From: a virus
Length of the DNA stretch: 64,000 bases
Direction: 5' to 3' (one strand)
IMG/VR virus record: IMGVR_UViG_3300033405_000004
Location: 93,323 to 157,322 of that record
The notes below the pieces were generated by a model. That model had not been told where the DNA came from. It did not search any database and worked only from the letters and a program-made list of their open reading frames with translations. A program made the position numbers and the translations under genes. Positions 20,896 through 60,953 of this stretch are shown here, piece by piece; the first letter of the stretch is position 1, and each line of letters opens with the position of its first letter.

Positions 20896-20902
20896 TTAGC
20901 CG

Positions 20903-22069: not shown

Positions 22070-22071
22070 AG

Positions 22072-28354: not shown

Positions 28355-28364
28355 TAGTTAGGGC
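28355..28364 (+). promoter_or_regulatory. Representative late promoter TAGTTA-N4-start
   Basis: Same motif and spacing at about 13 gene starts (listed in findings). Confidence 0.8.
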
Positions 28365-28652
28365 ATGCCGAACGCGCGCCAGATTCTCGAAAGCCTCGTC
28401 GAAGACGAGGCCGTCCGCATCGGCCCGCCGCCGCGGGTGAAGTCCCTTACCGACCGGGAGTGGCTGGCCTGGAAGGACAGGCTCACCCCGCAGCAGTGGG
28501 AGGCCCTGGGGAGGGTGCGGGAGCGCTGGGACTGGGTGGCCGACCCGGGGTTCCTGCCGCTGGAGAAGTGCCTGATGGTCCACGTCGGCTCGAACGAGAC
28601 CGGGGCGGAGATGTGGCTCGGCATCGAGACCGATGGCCACACCCACTCCTGA
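28365..28652 (+). CDS. Small putative virion-internal protein
   Basis: TAGTTA-N4-ATG, N-terminal ARQILESLVE tag. Confidence 0.7.
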   Translation: MPNARQILESLVEDEAVRIGPPPRVKSLTDREWLAWKDRLTPQQWEALGRVRERWDWVADPGFLPLEKCLMVHVGSNETGAEMWLGIETDGHTHS

Positions 28653-32363: not shown

Positions 32364-33527
32364 CTAGCCGATGAGCTGGGTGACCAGCGTCCGGGCGTAG
32401 AGCTTGTCGCCGACCACGCGCTGCACGTCGGCGGCGATCTCGCTGATGAGCCTCCCGGTGTTCAGGCGGTGGTAGGCCCCCTTCAGCAGCGGCGGGAGGA
32501 TGCGCCGGTAGGCGGCGTCCATGAGTTCGAGGTAGCGCCGGCAGCTCTCGTCCATGTCCTCGCTCAGCTTGAGGTCCATGCCGGCGGCGTAGTAGTTGAG
32601 GCTGCCCTGGCGCTCCGTGAGCCGGGCGTAGGCGACCTCCGGGGGCACCACGCAGTGGAAGACGACGTCGGGGACCCGCAGGCCCCTGTAGAGGGCGAGC
32701 AGCGCCGACTCGTCGACGCCGCGGAGGGAGTCGCGCACGAGGCTCGTGTAGAGGTAGCGGTCGCAGAGGACCGTCCTGCCCTCCTGCAGCGCCGGGGCGA
32801 TGACGGTCTCGTACCGCTCGACCAGGTCGGCGGCGTGGAGGAGGGAGAAGAGGAGCGGCGACAGCGACTGCTCCTCCTTCGCCTGCCGGATGAGCGGGGC
32901 GAAGCGGGCGCTGCTGTTCCACTTGGTGGCGACCGCCGGCTGGCGGTTGGATTCCAGCCACTCCTGGAGCTTCCGGTGCTGCGTGGACTTGCCGGACCCG
33001 TCCGGCCCCTCGAAGGCGATGAGCAGGCCCCGCCTGGACTCGACGATCGGGTGCGCCGCCGCGAGGGCCGCGAGGGACTCGTGGACCGCCAGGGCCGCCG
33101 CGACCAGGGAGCCGGTCTGGGTCAGCCTGCCCGCCTCCCTGGCGGGGACCCACTCCAGGGCCTTCTCGTCGCTCGACGCCTTGGCCTCGGTGCCCGGGGG
33201 CACCCTGGTGGTGTAGAAGTGGAGGCCGCCCAGCTTGCCCACGTAGGTGAGCCTGTCGGCGGGCGCGTCGATGCCGGTCTCCTCGCGCAGCTCCCGGCTG
33301 GCGGCCTGCGCGGGGTCCTCGCCCGGCCGCAGGTGGCCGCCGGGGAAGTCGTGCGCCGCGCCCTTCTTGACCCCGACCAGCACCTCCGGCCAGGGGGCGC
33401 CTACGTAGCCGGGCGGGATGGCCGTCCCCGCGGCGCCGGGGTCGCGCCCCGGGCGCACCACGATGACGTGCGCGCCCTCCTTCAGGTCGCCGGGGTCCTT
33501 CTCGATCAGGGCGTGGATGCGGTTCAC
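32364..33527 (-). CDS. tmk: Nudix hydrolase - thymidylate kinase fusion
   Basis: Nudix box GGHLRPGEDPAQAASRELREETG, then FEGPDGSGKST and LCDRY. Confidence 0.9.
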   Translation of the reverse strand: MNRIHALIEKDPGDLKEGAHVIVVRPGRDPGAAGTAIPPGYVGAPWPEVLVGVKKGAAHDFPGGHLRPGEDPAQAASRELREETGIDAPADRLTYVGKLGGLHFYTTRVPPGTEAKASSDEKALEWVPAREAGRLTQTGSLVAAALAVHESLAALAAAHPIVESRRGLLIAFEGPDGSGKSTQHRKLQEWLESNRQPAVATKWNSSARFAPLIRQAKEEQSLSPLLFSLLHAADLVERYETVIAPALQEGRTVLCDRYLYTSLVRDSLRGVDESALLALYRGLRVPDVVFHCVVPPEVAYARLTERQGSLNYYAAGMDLKLSEDMDESCRRYLELMDAAYRRILPPLLKGAYHRLNTGRLISEIAADVQRVVGDKLYARTLVTQLIG

Positions 33528-43782: not shown

Positions 43783-43846
43783 GCCCTGTAGAACCGTTGC
43801 GATGGCGTAAACATTTATTGTGGCGGCCCGGCCCCGTAATTAGGGC

Positions 43847-44275
43847 ATGCCAAGCCTTGTCGTACGCCGCCTGATGGAGGATGACGCCGTCCCGCTTCCC
43901 GCCGCCGTGGTGCCCGCATGGCGCCGCAGCCGGAGGCGCGGTCGCAGGCGCCCCGTCGCCGAGGCCTACGGGCGGCAGCAGGACATGCGGTTCGACTGCG
44001 ACGCCCGCGTCGAGGTCTGGGTCACCCAGGATGACCTGGAGGATGACCAGCGCATCGCCGCGATCAAGGCGGAGAACATCCCGCTGGAGCAGAAGATCCC
44101 CAAGGCGAAGGCCGTCGCCGCGCAGATCGCCGGGGAGCACCTTTCCGAGTTCGAGGGTGCGGGCAACCGCGCCGGCTACGCTGTCGAGGTTACTGCGGAC
44201 ACGTCCCCGACCAACGTCAACGTCGACAGGATCGACTGGGTCGGGCTTCTGGAGCCCCGGTCGGAGGAGGAGTGA
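43847..44275 (+). CDS. Putative virion-internal protein
   Basis: TAATTA-N4-ATG, VVRRLME tag, VAEA site. Confidence 0.7.
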   Translation: MPSLVVRRLMEDDAVPLPAAVVPAWRRSRRRGRRRPVAEAYGRQQDMRFDCDARVEVWVTQDDLEDDQRIAAIKAENIPLEQKIPKAKAVAAQIAGEHLSEFEGAGNRAGYAVEVTADTSPTNVNVDRIDWVGLLEPRSEEE

Positions 44276-44278
44276 CGT

Positions 44279-45283
44279 GTGGCCTACCTCTGCGAGCGCC
44301 TTAGTTTCGACACGCTGTTCCGCCTGAGCGAGCCCAAGCGGGTGGCCCGCTCGGCCACCGTCCGCTCCAAGCAGACGCCTGTCCTCGGCCAGGTCTCGGC
44401 CAACCAGGATGAGGCGGCCTACACTTTCCGGTTTCGTTCCTACCCGTCCACCACCGGCCGCACCCACCGGGGCTTCATCCGCTTCTTCCGCCCGCGCAAC
44501 CCGCGCACCCCGCTGGAGAAGCTCGACTGCGAAATCGACTGCGCCTGCCCCGACTACCGCTACCGCTGGGCGTGGGCCAACAAGCAGCGCGGCTCCAGCC
44601 GCGTCGGCCCCCGCTCGCTCAACCAGGCGTGGAACCGCGCCCCTCGGATCACCAACCCGACCGCCCGGCCTGGCCTCTGCAAGCACCTCCTGGCCCTGCG
44701 CGATCATCTCTATGGCCAGATGGTGAGGTTCGCGGCCGCGCGCCCGCGGGCTGAGGAGGAGGCCCCGGTGAGTGGTGAGGAGCACATGCAGAACTTGGTC
44801 AAGGAACTGAATCGGCAGGCCCAGTGGCGGCTGGCTCAGCGGCGCCACCGCGAGCGCGAGGCGGCGGCGACGCACGCCGCGGCCCTCGCCGCGGCCCCGG
44901 TCGTCCCCGTCGGCCCCGCCATGCAGCGCACGGTGGCTACCCGCTTCATTCGACCTGAGTCTCTGGACTCGGTAGTTAGGGGCATGAAAAGCTTGCTCGA
45001 AGAGCGCAAATTGGTTCAGGGTCTGCTCCGCGAAGCCGAGGGCGCCGTCGAAGTCGACGACGATGATGCCGGCCCCGGCTTCGGCCTTGAGGCCGCCGAG
45101 CCCGAGGTCTCCGACGAGTCTGAGATCGTGGCCCTGCTGCGCGACATCCTTGCGGCCATCGTCCGCCTGGGCGGGGATGAGGAGGGGCCCGGCGAGGAGG
45201 GCGAGGAAGTTGAGGAACCCATCATCCCGGACGACGCCGAGGAGGTCGAGGCCGGCGAAATGCCCGATCAAACCGAAGCCTGA
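44279..45283 (+). CDS. SWIM zinc-finger protein with an in-frame nested acidic C-terminal gene (from 44984)
   Basis: CACPDYRY...CKHL. Internal TAGTTA-GGGGC-ATG. Confidence 0.75.
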   Translation: MAYLCERLSFDTLFRLSEPKRVARSATVRSKQTPVLGQVSANQDEAAYTFRFRSYPSTTGRTHRGFIRFFRPRNPRTPLEKLDCEIDCACPDYRYRWAWANKQRGSSRVGPRSLNQAWNRAPRITNPTARPGLCKHLLALRDHLYGQMVRFAAARPRAEEEAPVSGEEHMQNLVKELNRQAQWRLAQRRHREREAAATHAAALAAAPVVPVGPAMQRTVATRFIRPESLDSVVRGMKSLLEERKLVQGLLREAEGAVEVDDDDAGPGFGLEAAEPEVSDESEIVALLRDILAAIVRLGGDEEGPGEEGEEVEEPIIPDDAEEVEAGEMPDQTEA

Positions 45284-45295
45284 ACCATTCCCACC

Positions 45296-45793
45296 ATGCC
45301 CTTGGACTATTCTGGTGTCTACCCTGCGCCGCTGCTGCGGCCGACCTATGTCCAGTGCCCGCTCGTCGCGGGCTACACGACCGCCCGGCTGTACTCGCCC
45401 TACGATTTCGGCGGCTCGTCCCCCATCCCGCCGACCCCCGACCACACGGTCTTCGCCGTCCTGGAGAACACCGACCCGAACAACGCCGCGGCGGTGGCCA
45501 TCAACCAGACCGGCACCGAGTGGTCGCTCGGCACGCGCACCCTGTCGGCCTTCGGCACGATCGTCCCCGGCGGCAGGATTTCCGTGAACTGGGTGCAGAC
45601 GCAGCCCTACCTTGAGATCGCGTGCACCTGGGGCGGGCCCGCCGAGATCCGGGCGCAGATCACGTCCCAGATGCAGTGGAGCGTCCTCGGCTTCCGCAAG
45701 ACCGACCCGATGTACCCGCCGCAGCTGTGGGAGGCGAACTATTCGGCCTACCCGGCCGTGCCGCCCGTGAACGTCTACACCGTGATCCCCTGA
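45296..45793 (+). CDS. Putative structural protein
   Basis: Pro/Thr/Tyr-rich, coding bias. Confidence 0.7.
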   Translation: MPLDYSGVYPAPLLRPTYVQCPLVAGYTTARLYSPYDFGGSSPIPPTPDHTVFAVLENTDPNNAAAVAINQTGTEWSLGTRTLSAFGTIVPGGRISVNWVQTQPYLEIACTWGGPAEIRAQITSQMQWSVLGFRKTDPMYPPQLWEANYSAYPAVPPVNVYTVIP

Positions 45794-45829
45794 GTTGACA
45801 CCGGCCAAACTTTGTAAACAAATCCAGCC

Positions 45830-46402
45830 ATGGCCAAGCGAATGGTAGAGGTCGAGGACAACCTGGACGACATCGTCCAGGGGGCCATCGACTCGGTGAA
45901 GGAGGAGCTGCTGAGCTTCCTCAACGATAACCCGGACACCGACACGTGCCCGGACATCAGCAACGACCTCGACTACTCCGGGGCCATCCACGAGATCATC
46001 GACGGGGCCGTCCCCATCTACACGAGCGAGATCAACGACCTCTTCTACCTGTACGGCGATGAGCTGGAGCAGGCCTTCGATGACGCCGGCATCGGCGAGA
46101 AGGACGACAAGGGCTGGCCGATGGGCTGGAAGGCCGCCGCCATCTACTGCTACATCGAGCAAAAGGTCCACGAGTGGTACCACGAGAACGCCGAGGAGGT
46201 TTTCGACGAGTGGAAGGAAGGCAGGCCCAAGGAGGAAGAGGACGAGGAGGCCGAGGAGGCCGAAGAGAAGCCCGAAGCTGAACCGCCGCCCGAAGGAGCC
46301 GCCCCGGCCCCGAAGGCCCCGAAGGCCGAGGAGGCTCCGCCCCCCAGCGAATCCGTCCAGGCCGAGGCCAAGCGCATGGTTGATAAGCTGCTGGAGGGCT
46401 GA
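45830..46402 (+). CDS. ocr: Ocr (T7 gp0.3)-like DNA-mimic anti-restriction protein with a C-terminal tag
   Basis: AIHEIIDGAVPIYTSEI..FDDAGI..AAIY, compared with recalled T7 AIHMAADNAVPHYYADI..FEDSGL..ARIY. Highly acidic. Confidence 0.8.
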   Translation: MAKRMVEVEDNLDDIVQGAIDSVKEELLSFLNDNPDTDTCPDISNDLDYSGAIHEIIDGAVPIYTSEINDLFYLYGDELEQAFDDAGIGEKDDKGWPMGWKAAAIYCYIEQKVHEWYHENAEEVFDEWKEGRPKEEEDEEAEEAEEKPEAEPPPEGAAPAPKAPKAEEAPPPSESVQAEAKRMVDKLLEG

Positions 46403-46404
46403 GC

Positions 46405-46863
46405 ATGGCCGACGCTGGCACCAGAAAAGCGGCCAAGCTCCTGGTCGACCGGCTGCTAGCCGAGGACGAGCACCGCGGCATCGCCTGGGAGGAGCTGCCG
46501 AATGGCGACCTCAGGATCACCGTCGACGACGACGTGCGGGAGGAGATCAAGGAGAAGATGCACGCCGGACTGTCGGACGAGGAGGTCCAGATGGGTGTGA
46601 GTGCCGTGCCGACCGAGCCGATGTTGTGGGACGTGCTGGAGCCGATGACCGCCAACAGCGAAATCCAGTCGGTGAGGCCGGAGGAGATCGCCGCCCTTAC
46701 TGACGCCCCGATCCTCTCGGACGCGGGCAGGGATGACCACGGGGAGCTCCAGATGACCCCGGAGAGCAAGGTTTGGTGGTACCCCGGCTACGCGACAAGG
46801 GACCCGCTCGACGACCTGATCGAGAAGGGTGAAACCGTCTTTACGAGGGTGCACAATGAGTAG
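46405..46863 (+). CDS. Acidic tagged protein
   Basis: N-terminal AAKLLVDRLLAE. Confidence 0.75.
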   Translation: MADAGTRKAAKLLVDRLLAEDEHRGIAWEELPNGDLRITVDDDVREEIKEKMHAGLSDEEVQMGVSAVPTEPMLWDVLEPMTANSEIQSVRPEEIAALTDAPILSDAGRDDHGELQMTPESKVWWYPGYATRDPLDDLIEKGETVFTRVHNE

Positions 46864-47401
46864 GGTTTTCGAGCGGGACGACCTCAAAAAGTTGAACATC
46901 CCTGCTAGCGGCAAGGCTTACGCCCGCCAGACTCGGGCTTCCCTGCGGCCGGGCAGGCGGCCGGACATGTACTTCCGCATGGTGCGCGACCTCACCAAGG
47001 GCCCCGAAAAAGGCTTCCCGACTCCCGACGTGGGCAAGGACACCGCTGGCAAGGCCGGCGCGGGCGCCCTGCACGGCGGGGCCAAGGGCCCGACGCTCGG
47101 CCACTCCAAGACCGTGGCGCAGCGCGCGGGCCGCGCGATGGTCGATTCGCTGGCCCGGCGGCTCGTCGGGGAGCTGCTTGAGGACTTCCCGCGGCACTTC
47201 GAGGTCGTCGTGGGCAACATCGGTACGGTCTACTCTGGCCGCGATGAGGCGGAGGCGCAGAAGCACTACGACGAGTACGTGGACCAGTCGAAGACTGGCT
47301 ATGGCCGCGCCGCCGGCGAGAGCGTGACGATGTTCAGGAACGGTGAGATTTTCAAGGAGCACATCGGAACGCAGGAGGACGCCCATGCCGAAGGAGGCTG
47401 A
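46856..47401 (+). CDS. Two-module tagged protein
   Basis: Internal SLARRLVGELLE separates a basic N-module from a compact C-domain. Confidence 0.75.
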   Translation: MSRVFERDDLKKLNIPASGKAYARQTRASLRPGRRPDMYFRMVRDLTKGPEKGFPTPDVGKDTAGKAGAGALHGGAKGPTLGHSKTVAQRAGRAMVDSLARRLVGELLEDFPRHFEVVVGNIGTVYSGRDEAEAQKHYDEYVDQSKTGYGRAAGESVTMFRNGEIFKEHIGTQEDAHAEGG

Positions 47402-48371
47402 GCGAAAGGTAAAGCGCCAGGGGGGCACGGCCCGCTACCGGACGATTAAGAGCGGCGACAAGCTCTTCACCTGCGCCGTGACCCGCAAGGAGGGCCCGAG
47501 GGGCGGCAGGACCGTCTGCTGGCCCCGGGAGGGTCTGCTGGCGTCGGCGTTGGTCGACAGGCTGCTGGAGATTCGGATGCGGGACGGGGAGCCGCGCAAA
47601 GAAAGCCCCGAGGGGCAGGCGCGGGCCATCATGGCCGCGCACGACATCCACGGCGTGGCCGAGGCCTTCGAGTATGCGTTCGACGACCGGAGCCACGGCG
47701 ACGACTACTTTGCCGAGGCGGCCCGGCAGGTCGCCGAGGAGGCGTTCGGGATGATCGACAAGATTCACGGCGGCGAGGAGGAGGCGGTGGGCTACCTTGT
47801 GAAGGTCATCGCCCGGTCCAACGAGTTGCGCCGGGCTGAGGGCAACGAGTCTTTGCACGAGGGCCTCCAATGGGTGCGGGTCCCGGCCGTCATGACGGGC
47901 GGGAAGCCCTATTTCTGGGTCGCGGACGACCCGGGCAAGTCCCGTCGCTACTCATGGGCCGTGGTGTGGAACCGGATTGCTAAGTCCTGGGTCGTCAAAT
48001 ACGAGGATGAGGAGCTGGGGCGCGCTTCGGACCCCGAGGAGGGGAAGAGGATGGCCGAGCAGGAGTTCGCCAGGCGGCCGCCCGACCGCGTCACCCGGGT
48101 CATCGGCTTCCCCGCCGAGTGCGCCGCCCGCCGCATGGTGGACGCTTTGTTAGAGGGCGACGAGTGGGTGCGGTTCACCAAGCGCACGAACGACCCGAAG
48201 CTCAAGTGGTTGGAGGGTGAGCTGGCGAAGCGCGGCATCAAATCCCGTCGCGCCGGCGAATCTTGGCATGCTCCGATTCTCCAGGTGATGCGCAAGGATC
48301 TGGACGCGGCATGGAAGATCCTGACACCCGTGGACGACGTCCCGGACGACGATCCGAGGTTTGGTGTTTAG
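47385..48371 (+). CDS. Multi-module tagged protein (putative polyprotein)
   Basis: ASALVDRLLE, SLHE and AARRMVDALLE separate four modules. Confidence 0.75.
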   Translation: MPKEAERKVKRQGGTARYRTIKSGDKLFTCAVTRKEGPRGGRTVCWPREGLLASALVDRLLEIRMRDGEPRKESPEGQARAIMAAHDIHGVAEAFEYAFDDRSHGDDYFAEAARQVAEEAFGMIDKIHGGEEEAVGYLVKVIARSNELRRAEGNESLHEGLQWVRVPAVMTGGKPYFWVADDPGKSRRYSWAVVWNRIAKSWVVKYEDEELGRASDPEEGKRMAEQEFARRPPDRVTRVIGFPAECAARRMVDALLEGDEWVRFTKRTNDPKLKWLEGELAKRGIKSRRAGESWHAPILQVMRKDLDAAWKILTPVDDVPDDDPRFGV

Positions 48372-49681
48372 CCGCCTGGGTCGTCGTCGACTTCCACCAC
48401 CGGGCCGCCTTGCTCGGACAGGGTGTCGCCTTCGCCTCGTGTGAGGCTCGTCGTCGGCGACTCCGACACGTTGTAGGGCACGCCGTCGGCGGTGTTCGGC
48501 GCCGTCGCGACCGCCGTGGTTGGGTCCACGGCGCTCAGCGCCGAGAAGTTCGCTTGCACGTCGTTCAGCTCCCCGCGTTCCAGTGCGTAGGTGCCCCGCA
48601 GGCGCCCGGCGGCGAACGTCGATTGCACTTTGACGAGGTAGTAGAGGCCTGACCACGACTCGCTCGGCACCATCAGCTGCACCATGTCGCCGGGCCGCAG
48701 GAAGGGCTGGTTCGCCATCGTGAACGTCATCCCGAACGTGCTCAGCCGGCCCGATTCGTAGCGGTTCTGCGCCTCGGCCAGGGCCAGCGAGAGCTGGTTC
48801 TGGCCCACGTGCCTGAGGTGGGTGCGCACATGGCCCAGCGATGGGATCACCTTCGCCAGCTTCAGTGCGACTGTGGGGGTGGTGAGGCTGGTTGGGGACT
48901 CGCCGGTCAGCGGCGCGTAGGCCACGGTGCGGACGCCCCCTGCGCCGCTCTGGAGGGCCGGGCCGCCGCGGTCGAGGAACACCAGGCCTGTCGCGGCCAC
49001 CCCGGGTACGCTGTAGGGGAGCTGCTTCAGGCCGGCGTTTTGCCAGCCGGGCGTGTGGAAGTGGAGCTGGTCGTTCTGCGCATACAGCTGGTAGTTGCCC
49101 ATGCCCTTCGTGTTCACGGCGGCCGGGAGCAGGCGCTCGGCGAGGAACATCCAGTCGGTCTCGTAGGATTGGATGAAGCTGAACTTGTCGCGGGTTGGCT
49201 CGACGACCGAGCCGGCGAACCCGAAGTCCGTGGCGAGCTGCTCTACGAGCTGGCTGACGATGCCCTGCTGGGCCCGGAGCCGCTGCTCCAGGTTGAGCGT
49301 GTAGAGGCGGTCGACCGTCGTCATGCGGAAGGTGTACCCTGCCGCGGAGGCGTTGATCTGCCCGGCCTGGAACGGCGCTTCAAGGATGTAGTGCGTCTCC
49401 CAAGCCCGCCACTGCGTCACGTCGCCTTGGTTGACCCCGATGCGGAAGCGAACGAGCCGGTCGTTTAGCAGCTTTGGGCGCAGCCGATCGATGAAGAGGC
49501 TGCGGTTGGCCGCCTGGATCTGGTGCACGCAGGTCTTCCACATGCTCGCCGGTTCGTCGTAGGCGCCCTTGAGGTAGGTGAACTGGCCTGGCACCAGCAG
49601 CGGGTCGGGCGCCTGCGCGGTGCCCAGGTCGAGTTCGACGATCGGGCGCCCGTTGAGCGGCTGCAGGGTGGTGGTGGCCAT
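48368..49681 (-). CDS. Baseplate hub (gp27/late control D-like)
   Basis: VSQLVEQLA, QSYETDWMFL, PFLRPGDMVQL, SGLYYL. TAGTTA-N4-ATG. Confidence 0.8.
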   Translation of the reverse strand: MATTTLQPLNGRPIVELDLGTAQAPDPLLVPGQFTYLKGAYDEPASMWKTCVHQIQAANRSLFIDRLRPKLLNDRLVRFRIGVNQGDVTQWRAWETHYILEAPFQAGQINASAAGYTFRMTTVDRLYTLNLEQRLRAQQGIVSQLVEQLATDFGFAGSVVEPTRDKFSFIQSYETDWMFLAERLLPAAVNTKGMGNYQLYAQNDQLHFHTPGWQNAGLKQLPYSVPGVAATGLVFLDRGGPALQSGAGGVRTVAYAPLTGESPTSLTTPTVALKLAKVIPSLGHVRTHLRHVGQNQLSLALAEAQNRYESGRLSTFGMTFTMANQPFLRPGDMVQLMVPSESWSGLYYLVKVQSTFAAGRLRGTYALERGELNDVQANFSALSAVDPTTAVATAPNTADGVPYNVSESPTTSLTRGEGDTLSEQGGPVVEVDDDPGG

Positions 49682-49684
49682 GCC

Positions 49685-50155
49685 CTAACTAGAGCCGCGC
49701 GCGAGCCTGCTCGCCTCGGCCTCCACCTCCTCCGCCCTGGCGTCGAAGGCCGCCCTGAGCCTGCCCTCCAGGTCCTCCGTGGTCAGCCGCACCAGCGCCC
49801 AGCCGTTGCGCTTCGCCACCGCCTCCTTCGCCCGGTCCCTCGCCTTCCGGCTGGGGTGGCGGTGCCATCTGCGCCCGTCGACCTCGACGAGCAGGCTCAG
49901 TCCCGGCACGGCGAAGTCGAAGGCGAACCCCTCCATCGGCTTGTCCTGATCGAAGGGGAGGCCGTAGTCGAGCAGTACCTGCAGGGCCCTCCGCTCCAAG
50001 GGGCTCCTCCTTGGCCGGCGATGCCTCGTTATTTTCACCTTGTCCCCGCAGGAGTTGCAGACGAAGATCGGCTTCCGCGCCCACTTGTGGGGCCAGACGA
50101 ACTTCCCGAGGGTGCTTTCCTTGACCTTGTGGCATCTATGGCAAAGCTCCAGCAT
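49685..50155 (-). CDS. DUF559/Vsr-like endonuclease with a Zn ribbon
   Basis: SPLE, FDF, LVEVDGRRWH, RD..K..GW.LVR. Confidence 0.85.
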   Translation of the reverse strand: MLELCHRCHKVKESTLGKFVWPHKWARKPIFVCNSCGDKVKITRHRRPRRSPLERRALQVLLDYGLPFDQDKPMEGFAFDFAVPGLSLLVEVDGRRWHRHPSRKARDRAKEAVAKRNGWALVRLTTEDLEGRLRAAFDARAEEVEAEASRLARGSS

Positions 50156-50190
50156 GGTTGTGGAGAACCCGTGAACCCCTTGTTTACAAC

Positions 50191-50409
50191 ATGAAAGACG
50201 TGGCTGCAGTCGTCGAGTTCAAGCGGCTCCATCGCGGTGCCCGCGGCGCCCACAGCAAGCGGAAGCTCTGCTGCTGCGGGGGCCACAGCGCCCACGACGC
50301 CAAGAGCAACCCGCACCACCACTCGACGCGGGCCCGCCTCCGGTACCGCCAGAGCCGGATTTTGTGCCTGACGCCAATCATGGAGGCGGGCGCGCTAGTT
50401 AGTGCATGA
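50191..50409 (+). CDS. Possible basic Cys/His-rich protein
   Basis: ATG directly after the TGTTTACA box. Confidence 0.4.
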   Translation: MKDVAAVVEFKRLHRGARGAHSKRKLCCCGGHSAHDAKSNPHHHSTRARLRYRQSRILCLTPIMEAGALVSA

Positions 50410-50651
50410 TCACGCCAGTTCAAAGGCTGTTGGAGGACGCGGACCGCACCGCGCTCGGCGTCGAGGCCGACGCCGTGCTCGCCTCCGCCAGGCGGGTGGC
50501 CGGGCTGGTGCCGCGGCGTGATGTTGAGTTCGAAATCGGCAGACAGGTCTTCCGCGACCCGCGGCCCGCGGGCGAGGAGGAGCTGCTGAAGAAGCTCGTG
50601 GAGATTCACGGCAAATTGGACGAGATCGTCGCCTACTTCGAGAGCGCCTGA
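50406..50651 (+). CDS. Small tagged late protein
   Basis: TAGTTA-N4-ATG, VQRLLE. Confidence 0.7.
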   Translation: MITPVQRLLEDADRTALGVEADAVLASARRVAGLVPRRDVEFEIGRQVFRDPRPAGEEELLKKLVEIHGKLDEIVAYFESA

Positions 50652-50665
50652 TGGCTAGTTAGTGC

Positions 50666-51316
50666 GTGAAGTTCACTGATCGGCCCAATTTCATCTACGA
50701 CCCGGCCGTGGCCGGGCTGGCCGACACCGTCGTCGCGCTGAGGATGCACGACGAGTATGTCAGGCAGTACTCGGCCCGCCCCGCTCCCATGTTCCTTGAG
50801 GTCGACCGGTCCGTCGAGAACGTGGACCTGCTCTGGCACACGCCGCGCGGCGCCCGCACCCAGTTCACCCGCCAGATCCGCATCCCGGCCATCAACAAGT
50901 TCGAGCGCCCGCAGTGGAACCTCACCCCGGTCGGCATCGTCCCCCAGAGGCGCGACCGGTTCTGGCTCTCCAACCTCGGCCTGGCCAGGGTCGACTGGTT
51001 CCCCAACCGCGGCGACCTGGTCATCTGGAACGGGTACCGGTACGGGCTGGTGGACGTGGTCATCCCGCCGGAATCCTACTGGGGCCAGACGGGCGTGTGG
51101 CTCGGGCTCTACGTGGTGGCCATCATCATCCCGGAGGGGGACGCCGCGCCCCTCGAAAACGTAAACATCGTCTACGACCCGGAGATGAGCCCCGACCTGA
51201 TGCCCTCGCCGCCTCCGCCGGTCTACAACGGCCCCGCCCTGGGCGAGCAGCTCCCCCAGCCGATCCTGCCCGTCCCGCCGCCCCCGCCCACCAACTTCGC
51301 GCCGCCCGCTTCCTGA
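50666..51316 (+). CDS. Neck/head-closure (gp14-like) protein
   Basis: WFPNRGDLVIW..Y motif, upstream of the tail genes. Confidence 0.6.
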   Translation: MKFTDRPNFIYDPAVAGLADTVVALRMHDEYVRQYSARPAPMFLEVDRSVENVDLLWHTPRGARTQFTRQIRIPAINKFERPQWNLTPVGIVPQRRDRFWLSNLGLARVDWFPNRGDLVIWNGYRYGLVDVVIPPESYWGQTGVWLGLYVVAIIIPEGDAAPLENVNIVYDPEMSPDLMPSPPPPVYNGPALGEQLPQPILPVPPPPPTNFAPPAS

Positions 51317-51319
51317 GCC

Positions 51320-51652
51320 ATGGAGGACGTCGTCGAGACCATGCGCCGGGCCTCCCTGGAGGCCGTGAACGCCAGCCTGCCGGCCTACCCGCCGGAGCGG
51401 TGGCTGGCGGCGCTCAAGCTGCTCGTCGCCAACCGCGCCGCCCCGAACACGGCGCCCCAGCAGGCTGCGGTGCTGCCGGACTTGGGGAGGCTCTCCCGCT
51501 CCGCAAGGTTCGGGTTCGACGACGGGGGCCTCCGAGTCGTGGCCGCTGGGGCCGAGGATGTGCTGACGCGCATCCGCCGCGGGTCGCTCTGGTTCAGGGG
51601 CGGCGACCCCGAGGCCGAGCTCCTCACACTTTTGGGTGAGGTCGGTAGTTAG
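51320..51652 (+). CDS. Hypothetical protein
   Basis: Operon position. Confidence 0.6.
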   Translation: MEDVVETMRRASLEAVNASLPAYPPERWLAALKLLVANRAAPNTAPQQAAVLPDLGRLSRSARFGFDDGGLRVVAAGAEDVLTRIRRGSLWFRGGDPEAELLTLLGEVGS

Positions 51653-51685
51653 GCCAGCAACCCATACCATCAAGGAGCGATTTTT

Positions 51686-51958
51686 ATGAAGAGAGATGTC
51701 CAAAAGACCATCAACGAGGCCCTCGTCAAGGTCTACGCCGGCGGCAAGATCGAGGAGGCGGTCAGTGAAATCCTCGGCGATCCTGGCATCGCGCCAGGCG
51801 TTGAGGTCGCCATCCTCTCCGACCCGGTGTGGGGCATGGAGGGAATCAAAGGCCGCGTCAAGGGGCCGTCGGGCACCAAGGGCTCCGGCTTCGTCGACGT
51901 CGAGCTCGCGAACGGCGTGATCATGCCGATGGAGTCCAACCTCCTCGCCCCCCTCTGA
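51686..51958 (+). CDS. Small SH3/KOW-like late protein
   Basis: Strong SD AAGGAG, PGVEV..GRV..VDVEL. Confidence 0.7.
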   Translation: MKRDVQKTINEALVKVYAGGKIEEAVSEILGDPGIAPGVEVAILSDPVWGMEGIKGRVKGPSGTKGSGFVDVELANGVIMPMESNLLAPL

Positions 51959-51962
51959 GTCC

Positions 51963-52430
51963 ATGTCGCTGGCCCGGCAGCTGCTGGAGCGCCTCCTCGG
52001 CGAGGCCGAGCCTGACGTCGACCAGGAAGTCCCCTGGGTGATCGAGGAACTCAAGGGCATCGGCATGGAGGTCGTCCCGCCTGAGGGGTTGTTTCAAATC
52101 GGCTTCGAGGACGACCCTGGCGGCCCGGCAACCGAGCTGATGACGGGGAAGCCGGTCAAGCCTGTACTTGAGCCCGCCGATGACGAGCGGACTGCGACTT
52201 ATCTCGTCAACCCAATGGCGGGCTGGAAGGAGTACGTCAAGCGGACCAACAAGAGTGGGAAGTGGGTGCAGTTTTCCGAGGAGCGCGCCGAGGAGTTCGA
52301 GCGGGTCGTGGCGAGGTACGGTTACGGGCTAGGCTCGGTGGGTGGCCACCCGGCCAACTTCGACTACCAGAAGGTCTACGGCGGCCTCACAGTCAGCTTT
52401 TTCTTCCTGGGGAACCCGTACCACATGTGA
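51963..52430 (+). CDS. Tagged putative virion-internal protein
   Basis: MSLARQLLERLLGE. Confidence 0.72.
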   Translation: MSLARQLLERLLGEAEPDVDQEVPWVIEELKGIGMEVVPPEGLFQIGFEDDPGGPATELMTGKPVKPVLEPADDERTATYLVNPMAGWKEYVKRTNKSGKWVQFSEERAEEFERVVARYGYGLGSVGGHPANFDYQKVYGGLTVSFFFLGNPYHM

Positions 52431-53356: not shown

Positions 53357-53416
53357 GCGGTCGGGCCTAGTAGTTAGGCCATGAAGTCCAACCGTAACCG
53401 TTGAGGGGCTCACACC

Positions 53417-55555
53417 ATGGCATCGCAAAACTTCCCAGGCGTTTACACCCAGATCATCGACCAGTCGTTCAACAGCGGGCTCACCAGCCGGTTCACCTGC
53501 GGCATGGTGGGGATCGCCTCCCAGGGGCCGTTCAACCAAGCGGTCAGCTGCCCGTCGATCGGGGATTTCGTCAGGCAGTTCGGCACCGGGCTGTCAGGCT
53601 CCTTCCTCGCTGAGGCCGTGGCGTCCATCGCCGCGACCTCCGACGGCTCCTACGTCGTGCGCGTCGGCACCCAGTATGAGAGCGCTGCGGATGGCGCCAA
53701 GGGCGCCGCGGGCTCCTTCACTCTCCTCACCCCCAACTGGCAGCGGTTCAACCCGGGCGACTACATCGACGTCACCCAGGTCGGCTCGGCCAGCACGGTC
53801 AACGCGGTCGTCGCCAGCGTCGGGTCGGCCACCGTGGTCGCCGGCGTCGGCACCCTCACCCTGGTCAGTGCCGGGGCGCAGGCCGTTCCGCTCGCCGCGA
53901 ACTACACGGGCGCCCAGGTTGGCATCTCCGAATACGTCGACGGCGAAAGCGTGGTGGACTCGGCCTTCCAGGCGGAGGCCTTCCTTGACGCGCCGTCCTA
54001 CGGGACCGTCATCGGCGGGGTCACCGTCATCAGCGGCTACAAGAGCACCTACAGCTTCACCGTCGTCGGCTCGGGCTCGATCTCGCCCGGCGACGTGCTC
54101 AAGATCACCCAGACGGGGCGGGTCGCCACCCGCGAGATCGTGGTCACCGACGTCGACCCGGTCACGAATGTCGTCAGCATCGAGACGAACACCAACACCC
54201 AGACGGGCCAGCAGGCCCTCCCGCTGCAGGACAACTACACCAGCGGCTCCGTCCAGAAGATGGTCTCCCCGACCGGCGGCGGCGTGGCCCTCCACCTGGT
54301 CGCGGCCACGGCGGGCACGTGGGCCAACACCGTCGGCAACGCCGGCCTCACCGTGCAGGTAGCGCCCGGCTCCTCGCCCGACACCAAGAAGCTCATCGTC
54401 TACCAGAACGCGACCGTCCAGGAGGTCGTGGACAACCTGTCCATGGACCCGACGAGCGACAACTACTACGCCACGGTGCTCGCGCAGGGCAACGACGCTT
54501 ACATCACCTGCCTCGCTGTCCTCACCGCCGAGCCGCCCAGCAACACCCTCGCCCCGTGGGACCTCGCCGACTACACGGCGTCCAACACGGCGTCGTTCGC
54601 CAACGGCTTCAACGGTGAGAACGTGGGCGACGCCGACTACGTCGGCACCATCGACGAGGACGACAACCGCACCGGCCTCAAGGTCTACGATGACCCGGAC
54701 AACGCCCTCGCCGCGGTCCTCGCCGTCCCCGGCGTCTCCAGCCAGGCGGTGATCCAGGAGCTGAACCGCATCGCCCGCGACATCAACGCGGTGGCGATCG
54801 TGGACATCCCCGACAACCTCAACGGGCGCGAGGCCATCGACTGGTCCAGCGCAGCCGGCCCCTACTCCGACACCGCCCTCGTCGACAGCTACACCGTCGC
54901 CTTCTTCTGGAACTGGTTCCAGGCCGTCAACCCGTTCACGGGCGCCGTGGAGTTCATGCCGCCCACGGTCGGCGTGCTCGGCGCGATGGCCGTCGTCTTC
55001 GACCAGTACGGCCCGTGGTTCGCCACGGCTGGCATGGTGCGCGGCCTCCTGCCGCAGGCCAGCGCCGTCCGCTACCCGCGCGTCTCCGAGGACGTCAAGC
55101 AGGCCATGCAGGCCCCCGGGAACTGCGTCAACCCGATCCTCCTGTACCGGGGCGCCACGATCCTCATCTGGGGCGACCGCACGACCCAGCGCGAGGACTC
55201 CAAGCTCCAGGCCCTCCACACGATCAACCTGGTCAACTACATCCTGGCGCAGATGTCCAACATCGCCCGCCGGTTCGTGTTCGACCCGAACGACACCGTC
55301 CTGCTGCAGCAGCTCACGCTGGAGTTCACGACGCTCCTCAACGCGGTCCAGACGGGCCGCGGGCTGGAGCAGTACCTCCTCACCTGCGACAGCACCAACA
55401 ACACGGCCGCGACGCGCAACCAGCGCGAGGTCATCGTGGACCTGCAGATCATCCCGACGGACGTGGCGGAGCGCATCTTCATCAATGTCACGGTCAACCA
55501 GTCCGGCGCGCAGCTCAACGCCATCTCCGGCACGCCGCCGCCCGCCGCCGGCTGA
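53417..55555 (+). CDS. Tail sheath protein
   Basis: FPGVYTQIID, PWFATAGMVRG, VNPI, IWGDRT, FVFDPND, CDSTNNT. Confidence 0.95.
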   Translation: MASQNFPGVYTQIIDQSFNSGLTSRFTCGMVGIASQGPFNQAVSCPSIGDFVRQFGTGLSGSFLAEAVASIAATSDGSYVVRVGTQYESAADGAKGAAGSFTLLTPNWQRFNPGDYIDVTQVGSASTVNAVVASVGSATVVAGVGTLTLVSAGAQAVPLAANYTGAQVGISEYVDGESVVDSAFQAEAFLDAPSYGTVIGGVTVISGYKSTYSFTVVGSGSISPGDVLKITQTGRVATREIVVTDVDPVTNVVSIETNTNTQTGQQALPLQDNYTSGSVQKMVSPTGGGVALHLVAATAGTWANTVGNAGLTVQVAPGSSPDTKKLIVYQNATVQEVVDNLSMDPTSDNYYATVLAQGNDAYITCLAVLTAEPPSNTLAPWDLADYTASNTASFANGFNGENVGDADYVGTIDEDDNRTGLKVYDDPDNALAAVLAVPGVSSQAVIQELNRIARDINAVAIVDIPDNLNGREAIDWSSAAGPYSDTALVDSYTVAFFWNWFQAVNPFTGAVEFMPPTVGVLGAMAVVFDQYGPWFATAGMVRGLLPQASAVRYPRVSEDVKQAMQAPGNCVNPILLYRGATILIWGDRTTQREDSKLQALHTINLVNYILAQMSNIARRFVFDPNDTVLLQQLTLEFTTLLNAVQTGRGLEQYLLTCDSTNNTAATRNQREVIVDLQIIPTDVAERIFINVTVNQSGAQLNAISGTPPPAAG

Positions 55556-57205: not shown

Positions 57206-58041
57206 GGGCCGCCGCCATCTTCGACAGCCAGTCGCTGTACACCCGCGCCTGGTTCGCGGCCCGCGGCAGCGAGGAGCTGGAGGATCTCTCCTCCTGCGAC
57301 GCCGCCGCCTGCGCCTCCCTCAAAATCCTCTGCTCGCTGCTCGGCCGGGGAGGCAGGCTCCCCCTGGAGCCGCGGCGCCTCCTGTTCTGCTGGGACGGGG
57401 AGAAGCGCAAGACCGAGAAGCCCCGCGAGTCGAAGCCGGACGAGTTCGACGGCGACAAGCGGTACTTCCGCAAGCTGATCGGGTACCTCTTCCGGGGCGC
57501 CGCGCAGGTCGTGGCCGAGGCCGAGGCCGACGACGCCGTGGCCACCGCGGCCTACCGCGAGGCGGCCGCCGGGGGGCGGGCCGTGGTCGTGTCGGGCGAC
57601 AAGGACCTCCAGCAGCTCCAGCGCTCCTCCATCCGCTATTACTGCCTCAACGCGAAGGCGGAGCTCGATTTCTTGGCGATATGCGATCGGTGGCATGTCG
57701 GACACCCCCGGGAGGTTTCCGTGGCCCTGGCGGTCATCGGAGACCCCAAGGACGGCATCCTGGGGGTGAATGGGCTCGGCCCGAAAAAGTTCAGCGCCCT
57801 GCGTGACCGGTTCCCCCGCCAGATCCCGCTGGGCGACCTGGTGGAGGGCATCATGGCCGCGCTCCCCGCCGCCCAGGCGGGGGAGTTCGCCGGGAGCCTT
57901 GAGGCCACGCTCCTCCGGGCCGACATCCCGTCCGTGCCCAGGCCGGCGCCGTGGAGGCCGGCCCCGCTGGAGGTCTTCGACCGGGTCGGCGGCCTCGGGC
58001 GCATGCGGAGCGACTGGGCCCGCCTCATCGGCCGGTGCTAG
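57145..58041 (+). CDS. 5'-3' exonuclease (FEN/T4 RNase H-like)
   Basis: EADDAVAT, VSGDKDLQQL, GDPKDGILGVNGLGPK. Confidence 0.9.
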   Translation: MAARLDQGDGREGGGAGAPLGAAAIFDSQSLYTRAWFAARGSEELEDLSSCDAAACASLKILCSLLGRGGRLPLEPRRLLFCWDGEKRKTEKPRESKPDEFDGDKRYFRKLIGYLFRGAAQVVAEAEADDAVATAAYREAAAGGRAVVVSGDKDLQQLQRSSIRYYCLNAKAELDFLAICDRWHVGHPREVSVALAVIGDPKDGILGVNGLGPKKFSALRDRFPRQIPLGDLVEGIMAALPAAQAGEFAGSLEATLLRADIPSVPRPAPWRPAPLEVFDRVGGLGRMRSDWARLIGRC

Positions 58042-60953
58042 GCCAGGGTCACCTGGATGCCCACCATCGGGGCGACGTTGGTGATCGCGGCGCCCGTCGG
58101 GAAGCTGGTGGGGAGGGCCCCCGCCCCCACGCCTGTCAGCTTCCAGCCGATGTAGCTGGCAACCCCGCCGCCCGACGCCCAGCCCGGCATGTACGGGTTG
58201 GGGCCGACGATGGTGCGGAGCTGCGAGGGCGTGGTGCCGAGGGAATCCACCTTGAGAACGATCCAGTAGAGGCCGGGGCGCAGCCAGTTGGTGAGGTTTG
58301 CGACCGTCTTAACGCCGGCCGTGGTTCCGAGGGCGAACGCGCCGCCCGCGGTCATCTCCGTCCGCAGGTTCTGCGGGTAGCCGTTGTACATGACGTCGTC
58401 GTAGAAGCCAAGCCGCACGTTGGCGCCCGACGTCGTCGGCGCGTTCATCTGCTCGACGATGAAGTTCTGCCACTCCTCGTTGGCCTCCGTCACCATGAAG
58501 GGCGTGGCGAACGTGTCGCCGGCGACGGACACGTAGTTCGAACCGGTGCCGCAGCCTTCCACCGTGTAGTATTGGCCCGAACTGATGATGTTGCGCTTGT
58601 TGTAGGGGAGCAGGGCGAGTGGGGTCTGGAGCTCCACCTGGCCGAGCGGGACGTAGTCCGTGGCTGGCGGCGCCAGCTTTTGGATGCCCTGCACCACCGC
58701 CTGCACGATGCGGCTGGAGCCCAGTTCGTTCGGGTGGAACCCGTCGTAAGCGGTGTAGGAGTAGACGCCCGGCGGGAGCGCGCTGCCGCCGTAGCCGAAC
58801 GCGGGATCGAGGTCCACGTACTGCACCATCGAGTCGAATAGGGCCACCGTGGACACCATGGTCTGGTTGAGTGCCGTCACGTCGGCGTCCGCCGCCGCGT
58901 GGTTGGATGGGATGGCGCCGGAGAAGTCGGTGTTGGTGGCGTAGTTGGCGTAGCCATTCTGTATCCGCCCGAGCGAGAACTGGATGCCGGTGGCGGCCTT
59001 GAGCGCGTTGGCCGACATCGTCACCGAGCCGGCGGTGTTGACGATGGCGACCGTCTCGCCGGGGGGTAGCGCGCCCTGGGCGTCCAGCTCTATGATGGAG
59101 GCGCCCGTGTCCTTGGGGTTGGCGGTGGAGAAGTTCGCCGAGGGCGACCAGAAGCTGAGGTTCGCGCCGGTCGTCGTGCCGTCGCCCAGCACCATGGGCA
59201 TGTAGCGGCAGTCGCAGTGGGGGACGTTGCAGACGATCACCGGGTCGGGCTTGGCGGACTCGATCCAGGCGGAGTCGATCTGGACGGTGCCCGAGATGGC
59301 CGTGACGGTGATGGTGATGTTCTGCCCGGCGTTGAGGGGCGAGAGGCCGTTCGCCGCCGCCGTGAACCGGATGGGGATCGGGCCGTGGGCGTCGAGCGTG
59401 GTCGAGTTCAGGTTCGTCGTCAGCCCGACGATGCCCGTCGTCCCGGCGACGGTGCCGCCCCAGGTCACGGTGCCGGCGGTCGCCCCGCTGGTGCCGACGA
59501 GCAGGAAGCAGATGGGCTCGCCCTTGTAGCCGAGGGGGATGGTGAACGTGGCGTTCGCGAGGTTCGTGGTGGTCGCCACCATGCCGTTCACCGAGCTCCA
59601 GTCGGCGTTGGCCGACCCGGCGCTCCACCCGGTGTTGAACGCCCACTGCGCCAGGCCGGCGCCCGCCGGGTAGATCGCGGAGGCTCGGATGCGGCTGATC
59701 GCCATCGTCAGGCAGTTTTGGAAGGTCGCCTGCATCAGGGGCTGCTGGGCGACGGTGAAGTTGCCTAGGTCGTTGATCCCGTAGATGATGACGGACAGGC
59801 CTCCGTAGCGGGCGAAGGGCCAGGCTTTCTTGTACCGGTTGATCTCGGTCAGGAACCGGACGAAGCCGCCCATCTGGCGCCCCTGCGAGCACAGGTTAGC
59901 CCCGGACCTGGCGTGGTTGCGCACGAGGTTGGGCTGCAGGTTCAGGGCGAGCGGCAGCTGCTGGCTCGGCATGGTGGCGAAGTTGGTGATCTGGTCGGGG
60001 CCCGTGAGGTAGTAGATGTCGTCGAACCAGGAGTGGCCCCACAGGTCCAGCTGCGTGGCGGGGCCGAGCGGGTAGCCCCAGGTCATGTTGCCGTAGCCGT
60101 CGTTGAGCGGCGCCCCGACCTTGTTGACCGGGTAGTTCTGGGCGGTGTTGGTCGGCAGATTGACGCCGGAGTAGTCGACCTCCCAGCTGCCGGCCGCGGT
60201 GGTGGTGCCGGTGCAGGCGAGGATGACCTGGGGGCCCATGCCGGTGCCCACGCTGCCCCCGCCGGTGCCGGTGCCGTTGACCCACACCGTCGCCCCGAGG
60301 TTGTTCACGATCGGGTTCGTCCCGTTCGAGTCGTTGTCGATTTCATATCGCTTCCCGACGTAGAGGGTGGTGGCGTTGGGCAGCGCGACCACCTGCGGCA
60401 GGGTCCCGTATATGATCGTGTTGTAGGGGCTCGCGGCGGTCAGCACCGTGGTGCCGCCGGCCGCCAGCACGGTCTGGAGGGTCTGGTCGGTGGCGCCTTG
60501 CGCCCCGGTTGCACCCTGGAAGCCCTGGGAGCCTTGGGAACCCGGGGAGCCTGGCGTGCCCGGCGTTCCCTGCGCGCCTGTGCTGCCCTGCAGCCCCTGG
60601 TAGCCTTGCGTGCCGGTGTTGCCCTGGAGGCCCTGGTACCCCTGCGGGCCGGTGTTCCCGACGAGACCCTGGTAGCCCTGGGTTCCGGTGCTCCCCTGGA
60701 GGCCTTGGAAGCCCTGTGCGCCAGTGCTGCCCTGGAGGCCCTGGTACCCCTGCGGGCCGGTGGCCCCCTGGTAGCCTTGGTAGCCCTGCGGCCCGGTGCT
60801 GCCCTGGAGGCCCTGGAAACCCTGGGTCAGGAGGTAGCCGGTGGCGCTGTAGACCTGCCACGCGCCGTCCACGTAGTTGGCCGAGCCGCTGCCGGGGATC
60901 GTGAGGCCGCCGAGCAGCTGGTTGGCCGCGTTGGTCCCGTTCGAGTAGAGCAT
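58038..60953 (-). CDS. Collagen-repeat fibre with an SGNH esterase domain
   Basis: GxQ/GxT repeats, WGHSW, YGIND, DGFHPN. Confidence 0.85.
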   Translation of the reverse strand: MLYSNGTNAANQLLGGLTIPGSGSANYVDGAWQVYSATGYLLTQGFQGLQGSTGPQGYQGYQGATGPQGYQGLQGSTGAQGFQGLQGSTGTQGYQGLVGNTGPQGYQGLQGNTGTQGYQGLQGSTGAQGTPGTPGSPGSQGSQGFQGATGAQGATDQTLQTVLAAGGTTVLTAASPYNTIIYGTLPQVVALPNATTLYVGKRYEIDNDSNGTNPIVNNLGATVWVNGTGTGGGSVGTGMGPQVILACTGTTTAAGSWEVDYSGVNLPTNTAQNYPVNKVGAPLNDGYGNMTWGYPLGPATQLDLWGHSWFDDIYYLTGPDQITNFATMPSQQLPLALNLQPNLVRNHARSGANLCSQGRQMGGFVRFLTEINRYKKAWPFARYGGLSVIIYGINDLGNFTVAQQPLMQATFQNCLTMAISRIRASAIYPAGAGLAQWAFNTGWSAGSANADWSSVNGMVATTTNLANATFTIPLGYKGEPICFLLVGTSGATAGTVTWGGTVAGTTGIVGLTTNLNSTTLDAHGPIPIRFTAAANGLSPLNAGQNITITVTAISGTVQIDSAWIESAKPDPVIVCNVPHCDCRYMPMVLGDGTTTGANLSFWSPSANFSTANPKDTGASIIELDAQGALPPGETVAIVNTAGSVTMSANALKAATGIQFSLGRIQNGYANYATNTDFSGAIPSNHAAADADVTALNQTMVSTVALFDSMVQYVDLDPAFGYGGSALPPGVYSYTAYDGFHPNELGSSRIVQAVVQGIQKLAPPATDYVPLGQVELQTPLALLPYNKRNIISSGQYYTVEGCGTGSNYVSVAGDTFATPFMVTEANEEWQNFIVEQMNAPTTSGANVRLGFYDDVMYNGYPQNLRTEMTAGGAFALGTTAGVKTVANLTNWLRPGLYWIVLKVDSLGTTPSQLRTIVGPNPYMPGWASGGGVASYIGWKLTGVGAGALPTSFPTGAAITNVAPMVGIQVTLA
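60494..60823 (-). repeat. Collagen-like coding repeat, mostly a 12-aa period (GxQ)3GxT
   Basis: Direct translation. The same unit recurs at 32210-32272 and 63875-64000. Confidence 0.9.

Follow-up and report, generated by a model that had tools for sequence, protein, structure and literature searches.

The capsid-targeting sequence (CTS) of the internal proteins of bacteriophage T4, on which Mullaney and Black reportedly worked in 1996, is the closest described parallel to the element analysed here, a short amphipathic peptide (hereafter the tag) that recurs on unrelated proteins of a T4-like phage. The DNA under study is a window of 64,000 nucleotides (nt), corresponding to bases 93323-157322 of IMG/VR record IMGVR_UViG_3300033405_000004; the whole 157,322-bp record was analysed and is referred to as G000. 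In T4, the CTS is carried by the internal proteins IPI-III and by Alt, and is removed by the prohead protease gp21 (reviewed in PMC9026906, PMC3012670, and PMC8442874). Its sequence is M-K-T-Y-Q-E-F-I-A-E (PMC8442874), of which residues 4 and 7 are involved in targeting and residues 8 and 10 in processing (PMC9026906). The internal-protein loci of the T-even phages keep a conserved tag while their cargo changes (PMC3012670, PMC9026906). In the giant phages phiKZ, 201phi2-1, and SPN3US, many head proteins, some of them ejected, are cut after Glu by gp21-like proteases (PMC10052503, PMC9026906). Polyvalent proteins, known from phages and conjugative elements, are giant single chains with 2-15 effector domains, often with a MuF or Zn-peptidase domain, and their transfer together with the DNA has been predicted (Iyer et al. 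2017, PMC5512222).

The tag is a variant of the T4 CTS principle, rather than a new kind of system. Both include an S77 protease, a gp23-type capsid protein, and a short helical peptide common to unrelated, fast-changing proteins, and the cargo in G000 likewise includes an ADP-ribosyltransferase (ART) and an anti-restriction protein. The spacing of the CTS, hydrophobic-x-x-hydrophobic-hydrophobic-x-Glu, is also that of V-D-x-L-L-G/A-E in the tag. In contrast to the CTS, the tag is longer, has a different consensus, and also occurs at C-termini and internal joints. There are ~20 carriers per genome, most of which are acidic, whereas the T4 internal proteins are small, highly basic, and DNA-associated; the cargo here also includes Ocr and multi-module proteins. 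Encapsulin cargo-loading peptides and the C-terminal coat-binding helices of scaffold proteins similarly employ a short terminal peptide and a flexible linker inside an HK97-fold shell. Encapsulins and the tag have in common a short peptide on a flexible linker and a logic usable at either terminus, but their sequences and shell families differ, and encapsulins are not known to have a protease step.

The giant phages resemble G000 in having a T4-like protease and a three-residue motif with Glu (provided that the tag is indeed cleaved), but their motif is Ala/Ser/Gly-x-Glu, their propeptides comprise 20-254 residues, they have no shared portable tag, and ~80% of the SPN3US head proteins are uncut. 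With polyvalent proteins, the tagged proteins share the ART-PolyVal domain family and domain shuffling. However, they are small chains of 81-408 residues with 1-3 modules, their joints carry a common tag while polyvalent proteins lack any address peptide in common, and Pfam searches of the tagged proteins revealed neither MuF nor peptidase domains. Thus, they do not belong to that class.

An amphipathic tag on unrelated proteins

G000 (68% GC; CheckV completeness 69%) is an uncultured T4-like myovirus from soil. Its genes were called with a codon-bias model, which gave 211 genes; the tag tallies refer to ~212 proteins. Identified genes include those for a Peptidase_S77 prohead protease, a gp23-type capsid protein, the sheath, a baseplate wedge, and collagen-like fibres, as well as a family-B DNA polymerase, helicases, a UvsX-like recombinase, and an NAD ligase. 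Coordinates below are those of the window unless G000 is named.

The tag comprises 10-15 residues with the consensus A-R-x-L-V-D/E-x-L-L-E/G-E-acidic. When copies from G000 and two relatives (G001 and G002) are combined, the consensus reads M/S-K-A/P-R-Q-L-V-E-x-L-L-E/G-E-D-E. At 100 degrees per residue, positions 1, 4, 5, 8, and 9 share one hydrophobic face of 140 degrees, and the charge runs from basic residues at the beginning to acidic residues at the end. The tag is carried by ~22 G000 proteins, nine copies lying within 43847-52430 and others outside the window at 43-93 kb of G000. It forms the exact C-terminal end of five proteins, stands at the start of at least ten, and is internal in several. 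Clear copies were located at 46367, 46432, 47153, 47541, 48126, 51972, 28374, 29827, and 2-37 (-), while those at 43853-43885, 45002-45034, 50415-50438, and 32367-32396 are weaker or partial. The original prediction, made from the letters of this stretch, had proposed a portable, position-independent tag on unrelated proteins. All 13 instances that it listed were recovered at or beside their positions, N-terminal, internal, and C-terminal copies are all present, and when the carriers were compared pairwise with the tag masked, no two were similar.

The first scan of the called G000 genes used a matrix built from the instances in that prediction. A strict pattern, devised after the copies were known, gave 12 matches as compared to 0.06 in residue shuffles. 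An independent matrix, built from 35 copies taken only from G001 and G002, gave 13 matches in G000 versus 0.35 in shuffles and a single match in off-frame open reading frames (ORFs) of the same DNA (199,785 residues). A motif no more frequent than in shuffled proteins, the outcome named beforehand as fatal to the idea, did not materialise. It might be supposed that the tag is a chance or compositional product of an Ala/Arg/Leu/Glu-rich, high-GC proteome, or a translated DNA repeat, since helices of Leu, Ala, Arg, and Glu are common at 68% GC and borderline matches of 12-13 bits occur in coiled coils. This explanation is already refuted, and we give it virtually no weight. A composition artefact was ruled out by the nearly empty shuffles and off-frame ORFs and by tagged relatives of lower GC (44-59%). 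A DNA repeat or recombination linker was ruled out by the synonymous codons, which vary from copy to copy, and a paralogous family by the loss of all similarity between carriers once the tag is masked. Because the codons differ and the carriers are unrelated, selection acts on the tag peptide itself, and we judge it nearly certain that the tag is a portable docking peptide under selection. The tags at 48126-48158 and 46432-46467 contain the Leu codons TTA, CTA, and TTG, which would be expected to be rare at 68% GC.

As originally noted, the replication and tail proteins appear to be free of the tag. The G000 scan detected no strong copy in the DNA polymerase, helicases, ligase, UvsX-like, sheath, tube, baseplate wedge, or fibre proteins; the borderline matches (12-13 bits), in one helicase and an SbcC-like coiled coil, were taken as chance.

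Conservation of the tag in related genomes

A megablast search for cultured relatives of G000 returned no match, and the sheath and capsid proteins match those of annotated phages at no more than 32% identity; no close cultured phage was found. Locus searches with single G000 proteins gave few or no relatives. Relatives were collected through the alignment of sheath homologues, of which ~100 are known and which yielded 69 IMG/VR loci flanking the sheath gene; five of the relatives (G001-G005; 52-57% GC) were scanned as whole records. Homologues of 48-64 of the 211 G000 genes are present in the compared relatives G001, G002, and G005.

In the sheath-flank survey, performed with a matrix built from G000, G001, and G002 copies, the tag was found in 16 of the 69 loci (44-59% GC), with 33 matches as compared to 0.8 expected. 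Most of these tags are N-terminal, and none was detected in the most distant loci. Whole records contain ~17 (G001), ~20 (G002), 11 (G003), 6 (G004), and ~2 (G005) copies, the shuffles giving at most 0.75. All three placements (N-terminal, internal, and C-terminal) are seen again in G001, G002, and G003, while the six copies of G004 occupy N-terminal or internal positions. The flavour of the tag differs between lineages, e.g., K-P-x-x-L-V-E in G001 and N-E-S-K-A-x-Q-L-V-E in G002, around a constant core L-V-E/D-x-L-L. To judge from these genomes, conservation of the tag extends over a clade of T4-like jumbo phages. Most of the cargo is not conserved: only 5 of 19 tagged G000 proteins have homologues in G001, G002, or G005. 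The clade is like the T-even internal-protein loci in that the tag is conserved while most of the comparable cargo is unshared between genomes (PMC3012670, PMC9026906).

Head operon and prohead protease

The T4-like processing background assumed in the original prediction is present. The Peptidase_S77 prohead protease is fused to a scaffold-like tail (G000 90830-92392; PF03420, E value 1.7e-22 at 91856-92293) and is also found in all five relatives with whole records. The gp23-type capsid protein (G000 89310-90764) matches PF07068 (E value 1.8e-32 at G000 89364-90488). A tagged Pro-rich protein of 210 amino acids (aa) (G000 92823-93455, -) is encoded two genes upstream of the protease, at the position that the core genes occupy in T4. 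Its N-terminal part occupies positions 1-133 of the window, and its tag (window 2-37) spans residues 33-44. In G001-G004, the proteins at the corresponding position start with tag-like helices. In G000-G004, this protein of 160-255 aa lies between a glycosyltransferase and the protease operon, and it is absent from the tag-poor G005. It could be a hub or a core protein. Tags are also carried by the products of genes that immediately follow the capsid gene in G000, G002, and G003.

The tag closes with hydrophobic-x-Glu, corresponding to the (Leu/Ile)-x-Glu rule of T4 gp21, and this feature is kept in 17 of 17 N-terminal or internal G000 copies (tabulated by eye), one having Phe instead of Leu, Ile, or Val at position P3. 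In contrast, three of the five C-terminal tags stop directly before the Glu, which fits a Glu that is needed only for release of a downstream part. The N-terminus of the protease, M-x-K-x-L-L-E-D in G000 and in the orthologues of G001-G005, recalls T4 gp21, which has an L-I-E site close to its own N-terminus (PMC9026906). In the capsid protein, a conserved I/V-L/Y-E ahead of W-G, at approximately residue 26, is a candidate maturation site. The C-terminus of the protease-scaffold protein of G000 and G001-G005 consists of a conserved E-S-x3-5-A-R/Q-R-L-S after a long Pro/Ala linker and is probably a capsid-docking element of its own. The idea that the tag copies this tail proved only partly true: the two peptides differ and have no more than A-R-R-L in common. 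A phyletic search for a receptor revealed a ~100-aa protein upstream of the protease in all six genomes, which is hence uninformative; the one protein absent from the tag-poor G005 is the Pro-rich tagged protein.

A second protease-like gene, apparently truncated, is present at 27204-27599. Its 131-aa product shares 29% identity with residues 45-143 of the prohead protease (BLAST E value 3e-4; PF03420, E value 0.014), and it adjoins a tmRNA-like RNA (transfer-messenger RNA) and a tagged gene.

Cargo domains and module borders

For most tag carriers, Pfam and PHROGs searches gave no match. Of the cargo identities originally proposed, an Ocr protein, an ART, and a Nudix-thymidylate kinase (Nudix-Tmk) fusion, all three were confirmed at the level of the domain, while the tag of the last is doubtful. 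The product of 45830-46402 (+) is, on the basis of both its sequence and its predicted fold, an Ocr-type DNA mimic of the PF08684 group. It comprises an Ocr domain (residues 12-130), a Pro/Ala/Glu linker (131-173), and a C-terminal tag helix (174-188; nt 46367-46399). It matches the PHROG ocr-like family (phrog_2568; E value 3.3e-5) and has no Pfam match of its own at E<0.01; among its 512 homologues, those with precomputed Pfam matches carry PF08684. In the AlphaFold2 (AF2) model, the tag is a separate helix (predicted local distance difference test, pLDDT, 84-88) connected by a low-confidence tether to a confident Ocr domain, and a Foldseek search with this model returned T7 Ocr chains as the top PDB matches (probability 0.96-1.0). 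Among 120 listed homologues, most are 134-146 residues long, all of these being untagged, and the Pro-rich linker and tag are present only in this protein and in P0107 (70% identical). Its N-terminus was considered as a second tag and ruled out, since this segment is conserved throughout the Ocr family as the beginning of the protein.

The 408-aa protein encoded at 28633-29859 (+) begins with two repeats, which are followed by an ART-fold domain (residues ~253-394), and ends in a tag (29827-29856). A consensus of 50 sequences shows an invariant Arg and conserved S-T-S and E-x-E positions. No direct Pfam match was obtained for the protein itself, and searches of PDB sequences gave only weak matches; its homologue P0230 matches PF18760 (Pfam ART-PolyVal) with an E value of 2.4e-8. 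The fold matches of the AF2 model (pLDDT 91.8) are headed by the anti-CRISPR structure 6kyf, which we take to be the ADP-ribosylating AcrIF11, followed by diphtheria toxin, PARPs, and a cyanophage pre-ejectosome chain, all with weak E values of 1e-3 and above. Together, these features identify the C-terminal domain as an ART fold of the R-S-E type, similar to ART-PolyVal. The homologues end at residues 393-399, directly before the tag. An ART is a classic packaged cargo of T4 (Alt), and this cargo, together with the cyanophage pre-ejectosome chain among the fold matches, was counted in favour of packaging. The Nudix-Tmk fusion (32364-33527, -), which has TAGTTA 10 nt upstream of its start, may end in a C-terminal tag at 32367-32396, but this could be merely the last helix of the kinase.

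Two proteins encoded within 43847-52430 carry internal tags. The 181-aa product of 46856-47401 (+) consists of two modules with a tag at 47153-47185. The 328-aa product of 47385-48371 (+) consists of module 1 (residues 1-49), a tag (47541-47573), module 2, a second tag (48126-48158), and module 3 (residues 260-327). Module 3 exists as a stand-alone protein of 64-100 residues in ~40 metagenome proteins, which begin directly after the position of the second tag. Module 1 is likewise encoded alone elsewhere; its homologues, which an alignment of the 328-aa protein with short homologues misplaced under module 3, are in several phages followed by a tag, either terminal or ahead of other domains. 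In another phage, P0385 joins module 1 of 47385-48371, a tag, and the post-tag domain of 46856-47401, and the G005 orthologue of 46856-47401 (its module 1) ends at the tag. The internal tags between domains that were originally reported thus sit exactly at the borders of modules encoded as separate genes elsewhere, and the stand-alone modules, the P0385 join, and the G005 ending indicate that modules are shuffled and that their joints carry the tag.

The position of tags at the joints of shuffled modules would also be expected if the tag were a self-associating element, e.g., one that bundles around the Pro-rich head protein, or a mere favoured linker for domain shuffling, and the near-tagless G005 also lacks the Pro-rich tagged head gene. 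We regard this as improbable. A linker would not persist at free N- and C-termini, nor would its hydrophobic face and closing Glu be maintained between genomes with sheath identities of 33-48%. A stable coiled coil would require more than ten residues, and the phyletic link is based on six genomes.

The remaining carriers characterised in the window are small proteins, most of them with the tag at the N-terminus. Clear N-terminal tags are present in two orphan proteins, of 152 aa (46405-46863, +; tag 46432-46467, residues 10-21) and 155 aa (51963-52430, +; tag 51972-52004), and in a 95-aa protein (28365-28652, +; tag 28374-28403) with TAGTTA 10 nt upstream of its start. A weak N-terminal tag (43853-43885) is found in a 142-aa protein (43847-44275, +), the start of which is marked by TAATTA at 43837-43842, and a short N-terminal half-tag (50415-50438) in an 81-aa protein (50406-50651, +), the start of which is marked by TAGTTA at 50396-50401. 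Between these lies a conserved 334-aa protein (44279-45283, +; phrog_18980) with a C-x-C...C-x-H SWIM-like motif. An in-frame internal start at 44984 (+), preceded by TAGTTA at 44973-44978, suggests that this gene may yield both the 334-aa protein and a nested, putative acidic product of 99 aa, as known for T4 gp21 and the lambda C/Nu3 genes, where nested products arise from one gene. The nested product contains a tag-like helix (45002-45034), a weak or partial tag retained in the orthologues of G001, G002, and G005.

Start signal and timing of expression

The hexamer TA-N-TTA (mostly TAGTTA) has ~70 copies, nearly all of which are intergenic. In ~35 genes it begins exactly 10 nt before the start codon, i.e., with a spacing of 4 nt to the ATG or GTG; examples are located at 28355, 33537 (-), 43837, 44973, 49691 (-), 50396, 50656, 52435, and 53371. 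The signal precedes the sheath, baseplate wedge, fibre, and adaptor genes as well as a methylase gene, while the DNA polymerase gene has TTCTTA. The tail sheath gene (53371-55555, +; ORF 53417-55555), with TAGTTA at 53371 and a true start probably at 53381, serves as a reference gene with the same signal. The tagged starts at 43847, 44984, and 50406, which were missed by the ORF caller and set with the help of these hexamers, have a copy 4-5 nt upstream.

The signal precedes 11 of 22 tagged genes as compared to 23 of 190 others (odds ratio 7.3, p = 8e-5), the three tagged starts just mentioned being included. The association is repeated in G001 (p = 5e-6) and G002 (p = 0.001), and the signal is 40-fold enriched before starts in G002 and G005. 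The remaining tagged genes of 45830-48371 follow the signals at 43837 and 44973 on the same strand as a closely spaced run. The TAGTTA late promoters of the original prediction are thus borne out as a signal that is enriched before tagged genes and shared with sheath, baseplate, and fibre genes; the designation as late promoters goes a step further. Since a 4-nt spacing leaves no room for a Shine-Dalgarno leader, the hexamer resembles a -10 element of the gp55 type, from which leaderless or near-leaderless mRNAs would be transcribed, or else a start signal peculiar to the phage. A 336-aa protein encoded at 6483-7493 (-), in which a gp55-like late sigma factor (phrog_234; E value 4e-5) is joined to a gp33-like late activator (phrog_836; E value 7e-5), is the likely reader of these signals. 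Signals and factor fit a late expression of the tagged genes. The Ocr gene, which has no start signal of its own and lies in the same-strand run behind the signals, makes most sense if its product is pre-loaded.

Proposed packaging, cleavage, and injection of the tagged proteins

From these sequence features, we infer packaging, cleavage, and injection of the carriers, each at its own level of confidence. It seems probable to us that the tag is a signal similar to the T4 CTS, which addresses its cargo to the prohead. Late in infection, the tag helix would dock the cargo onto the scaffolding core or the inner prohead shell. The Peptidase_S77 prohead protease would then cut after the Glu of the hydrophobic-x-Glu that closes the tag, a step to which we assign slightly less than an even chance. 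Such a cut would remove N-terminal tags and would split multi-module proteins at their internal tags, while C-terminal tags would need none. The freed cargo, i.e., Ocr, the ART-fold enzyme, a 2H phosphoesterase, and many small orphan modules, would remain in the head and enter the next cell with the DNA; injection of the tagged proteins as anti-defence cargo is a possibility that we entertain with some reserve. Taken together, the tag may tentatively be described as a clade-wide, position-independent address-and-cut code, in which the same helix loads a shuffled effector library into the head and the head protease separates the modules there. In this proposal, equally tentative, the library would comprise Ocr, the ART with an anti-CRISPR as its best fold match, the 2H phosphoesterase, and dozens of orphan modules. 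That the tagged modules of unknown function are candidate anti-defence effectors, as originally suggested, is a reasonable guess.

Several observations weigh against a capsid address. No C-terminal or internal targeting peptides are known from T4. The carriers are mostly acidic (16 of 22; median isoelectric point 5.0), while the T4 internal proteins are highly basic. Several tag copies of G002 have no Glu, and the capsid and protease genes are not preceded by TA-N-TTA. The conserved end of the scaffold has only the first half of the tag in common with it. Finally, Nudix-Tmk would be an odd head cargo, although its tag is doubtful.

Some of these points would suit a docking motif for a hub other than the capsid, such as an RNA polymerase, clamp, chaperone, or unfoldase of phage or host, which would gather accessory proteins in a cytoplasmic complex or for a common processor. 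Binding to hubs is typical of short linear motifs that function both at the termini and within a chain, the carriers are acidic, an enzyme of nucleotide metabolism (Nudix-Tmk) may carry the tag, and a second shared C-terminal tag is found on an AAA-ATPase operon of the same phage. We nevertheless consider a hub unlikely. The tag, or a tag-like helix, is present on head-operon proteins beside the protease in five genomes, it is associated with the start signal of structural genes, and it closes with the rule of the T4 protease. Moreover, Ocr and ART are classic pre-loaded or immediate-early weapons, and no candidate hub was found.

Neighbouring genes

In the AAA-ATPase operon (G000 79817-84039), four proteins end in the shared peptide P-I-R-K-F-D-L. 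Collagen-like repeat blocks are common to three fibre-like proteins, encoded at 58038-60953 (-), 30992-32359 (-), and G000 20864-23299.

Implications

If the tag is a capsid address, it marks proteins that are delivered together with the DNA, i.e., the first weapons against restriction, CRISPR, and signalling defences. With ~20 proteins marked per genome, most of them of unknown function, it would provide a shortlist of anti-defence candidates from sequence alone, and if the address-and-cut code holds, the injected arsenal of any member of the clade could be read from its sequence via the tag. The way in which modules are shuffled next to the tag illustrates a possible route for the evolution of such cargo libraries. 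It would also follow that the principle of the T4 CTS is old and widespread in T4-like phages, and that it works from either end of a protein or between modules, a property that would be of practical use when foreign proteins are to be packaged in phage heads.

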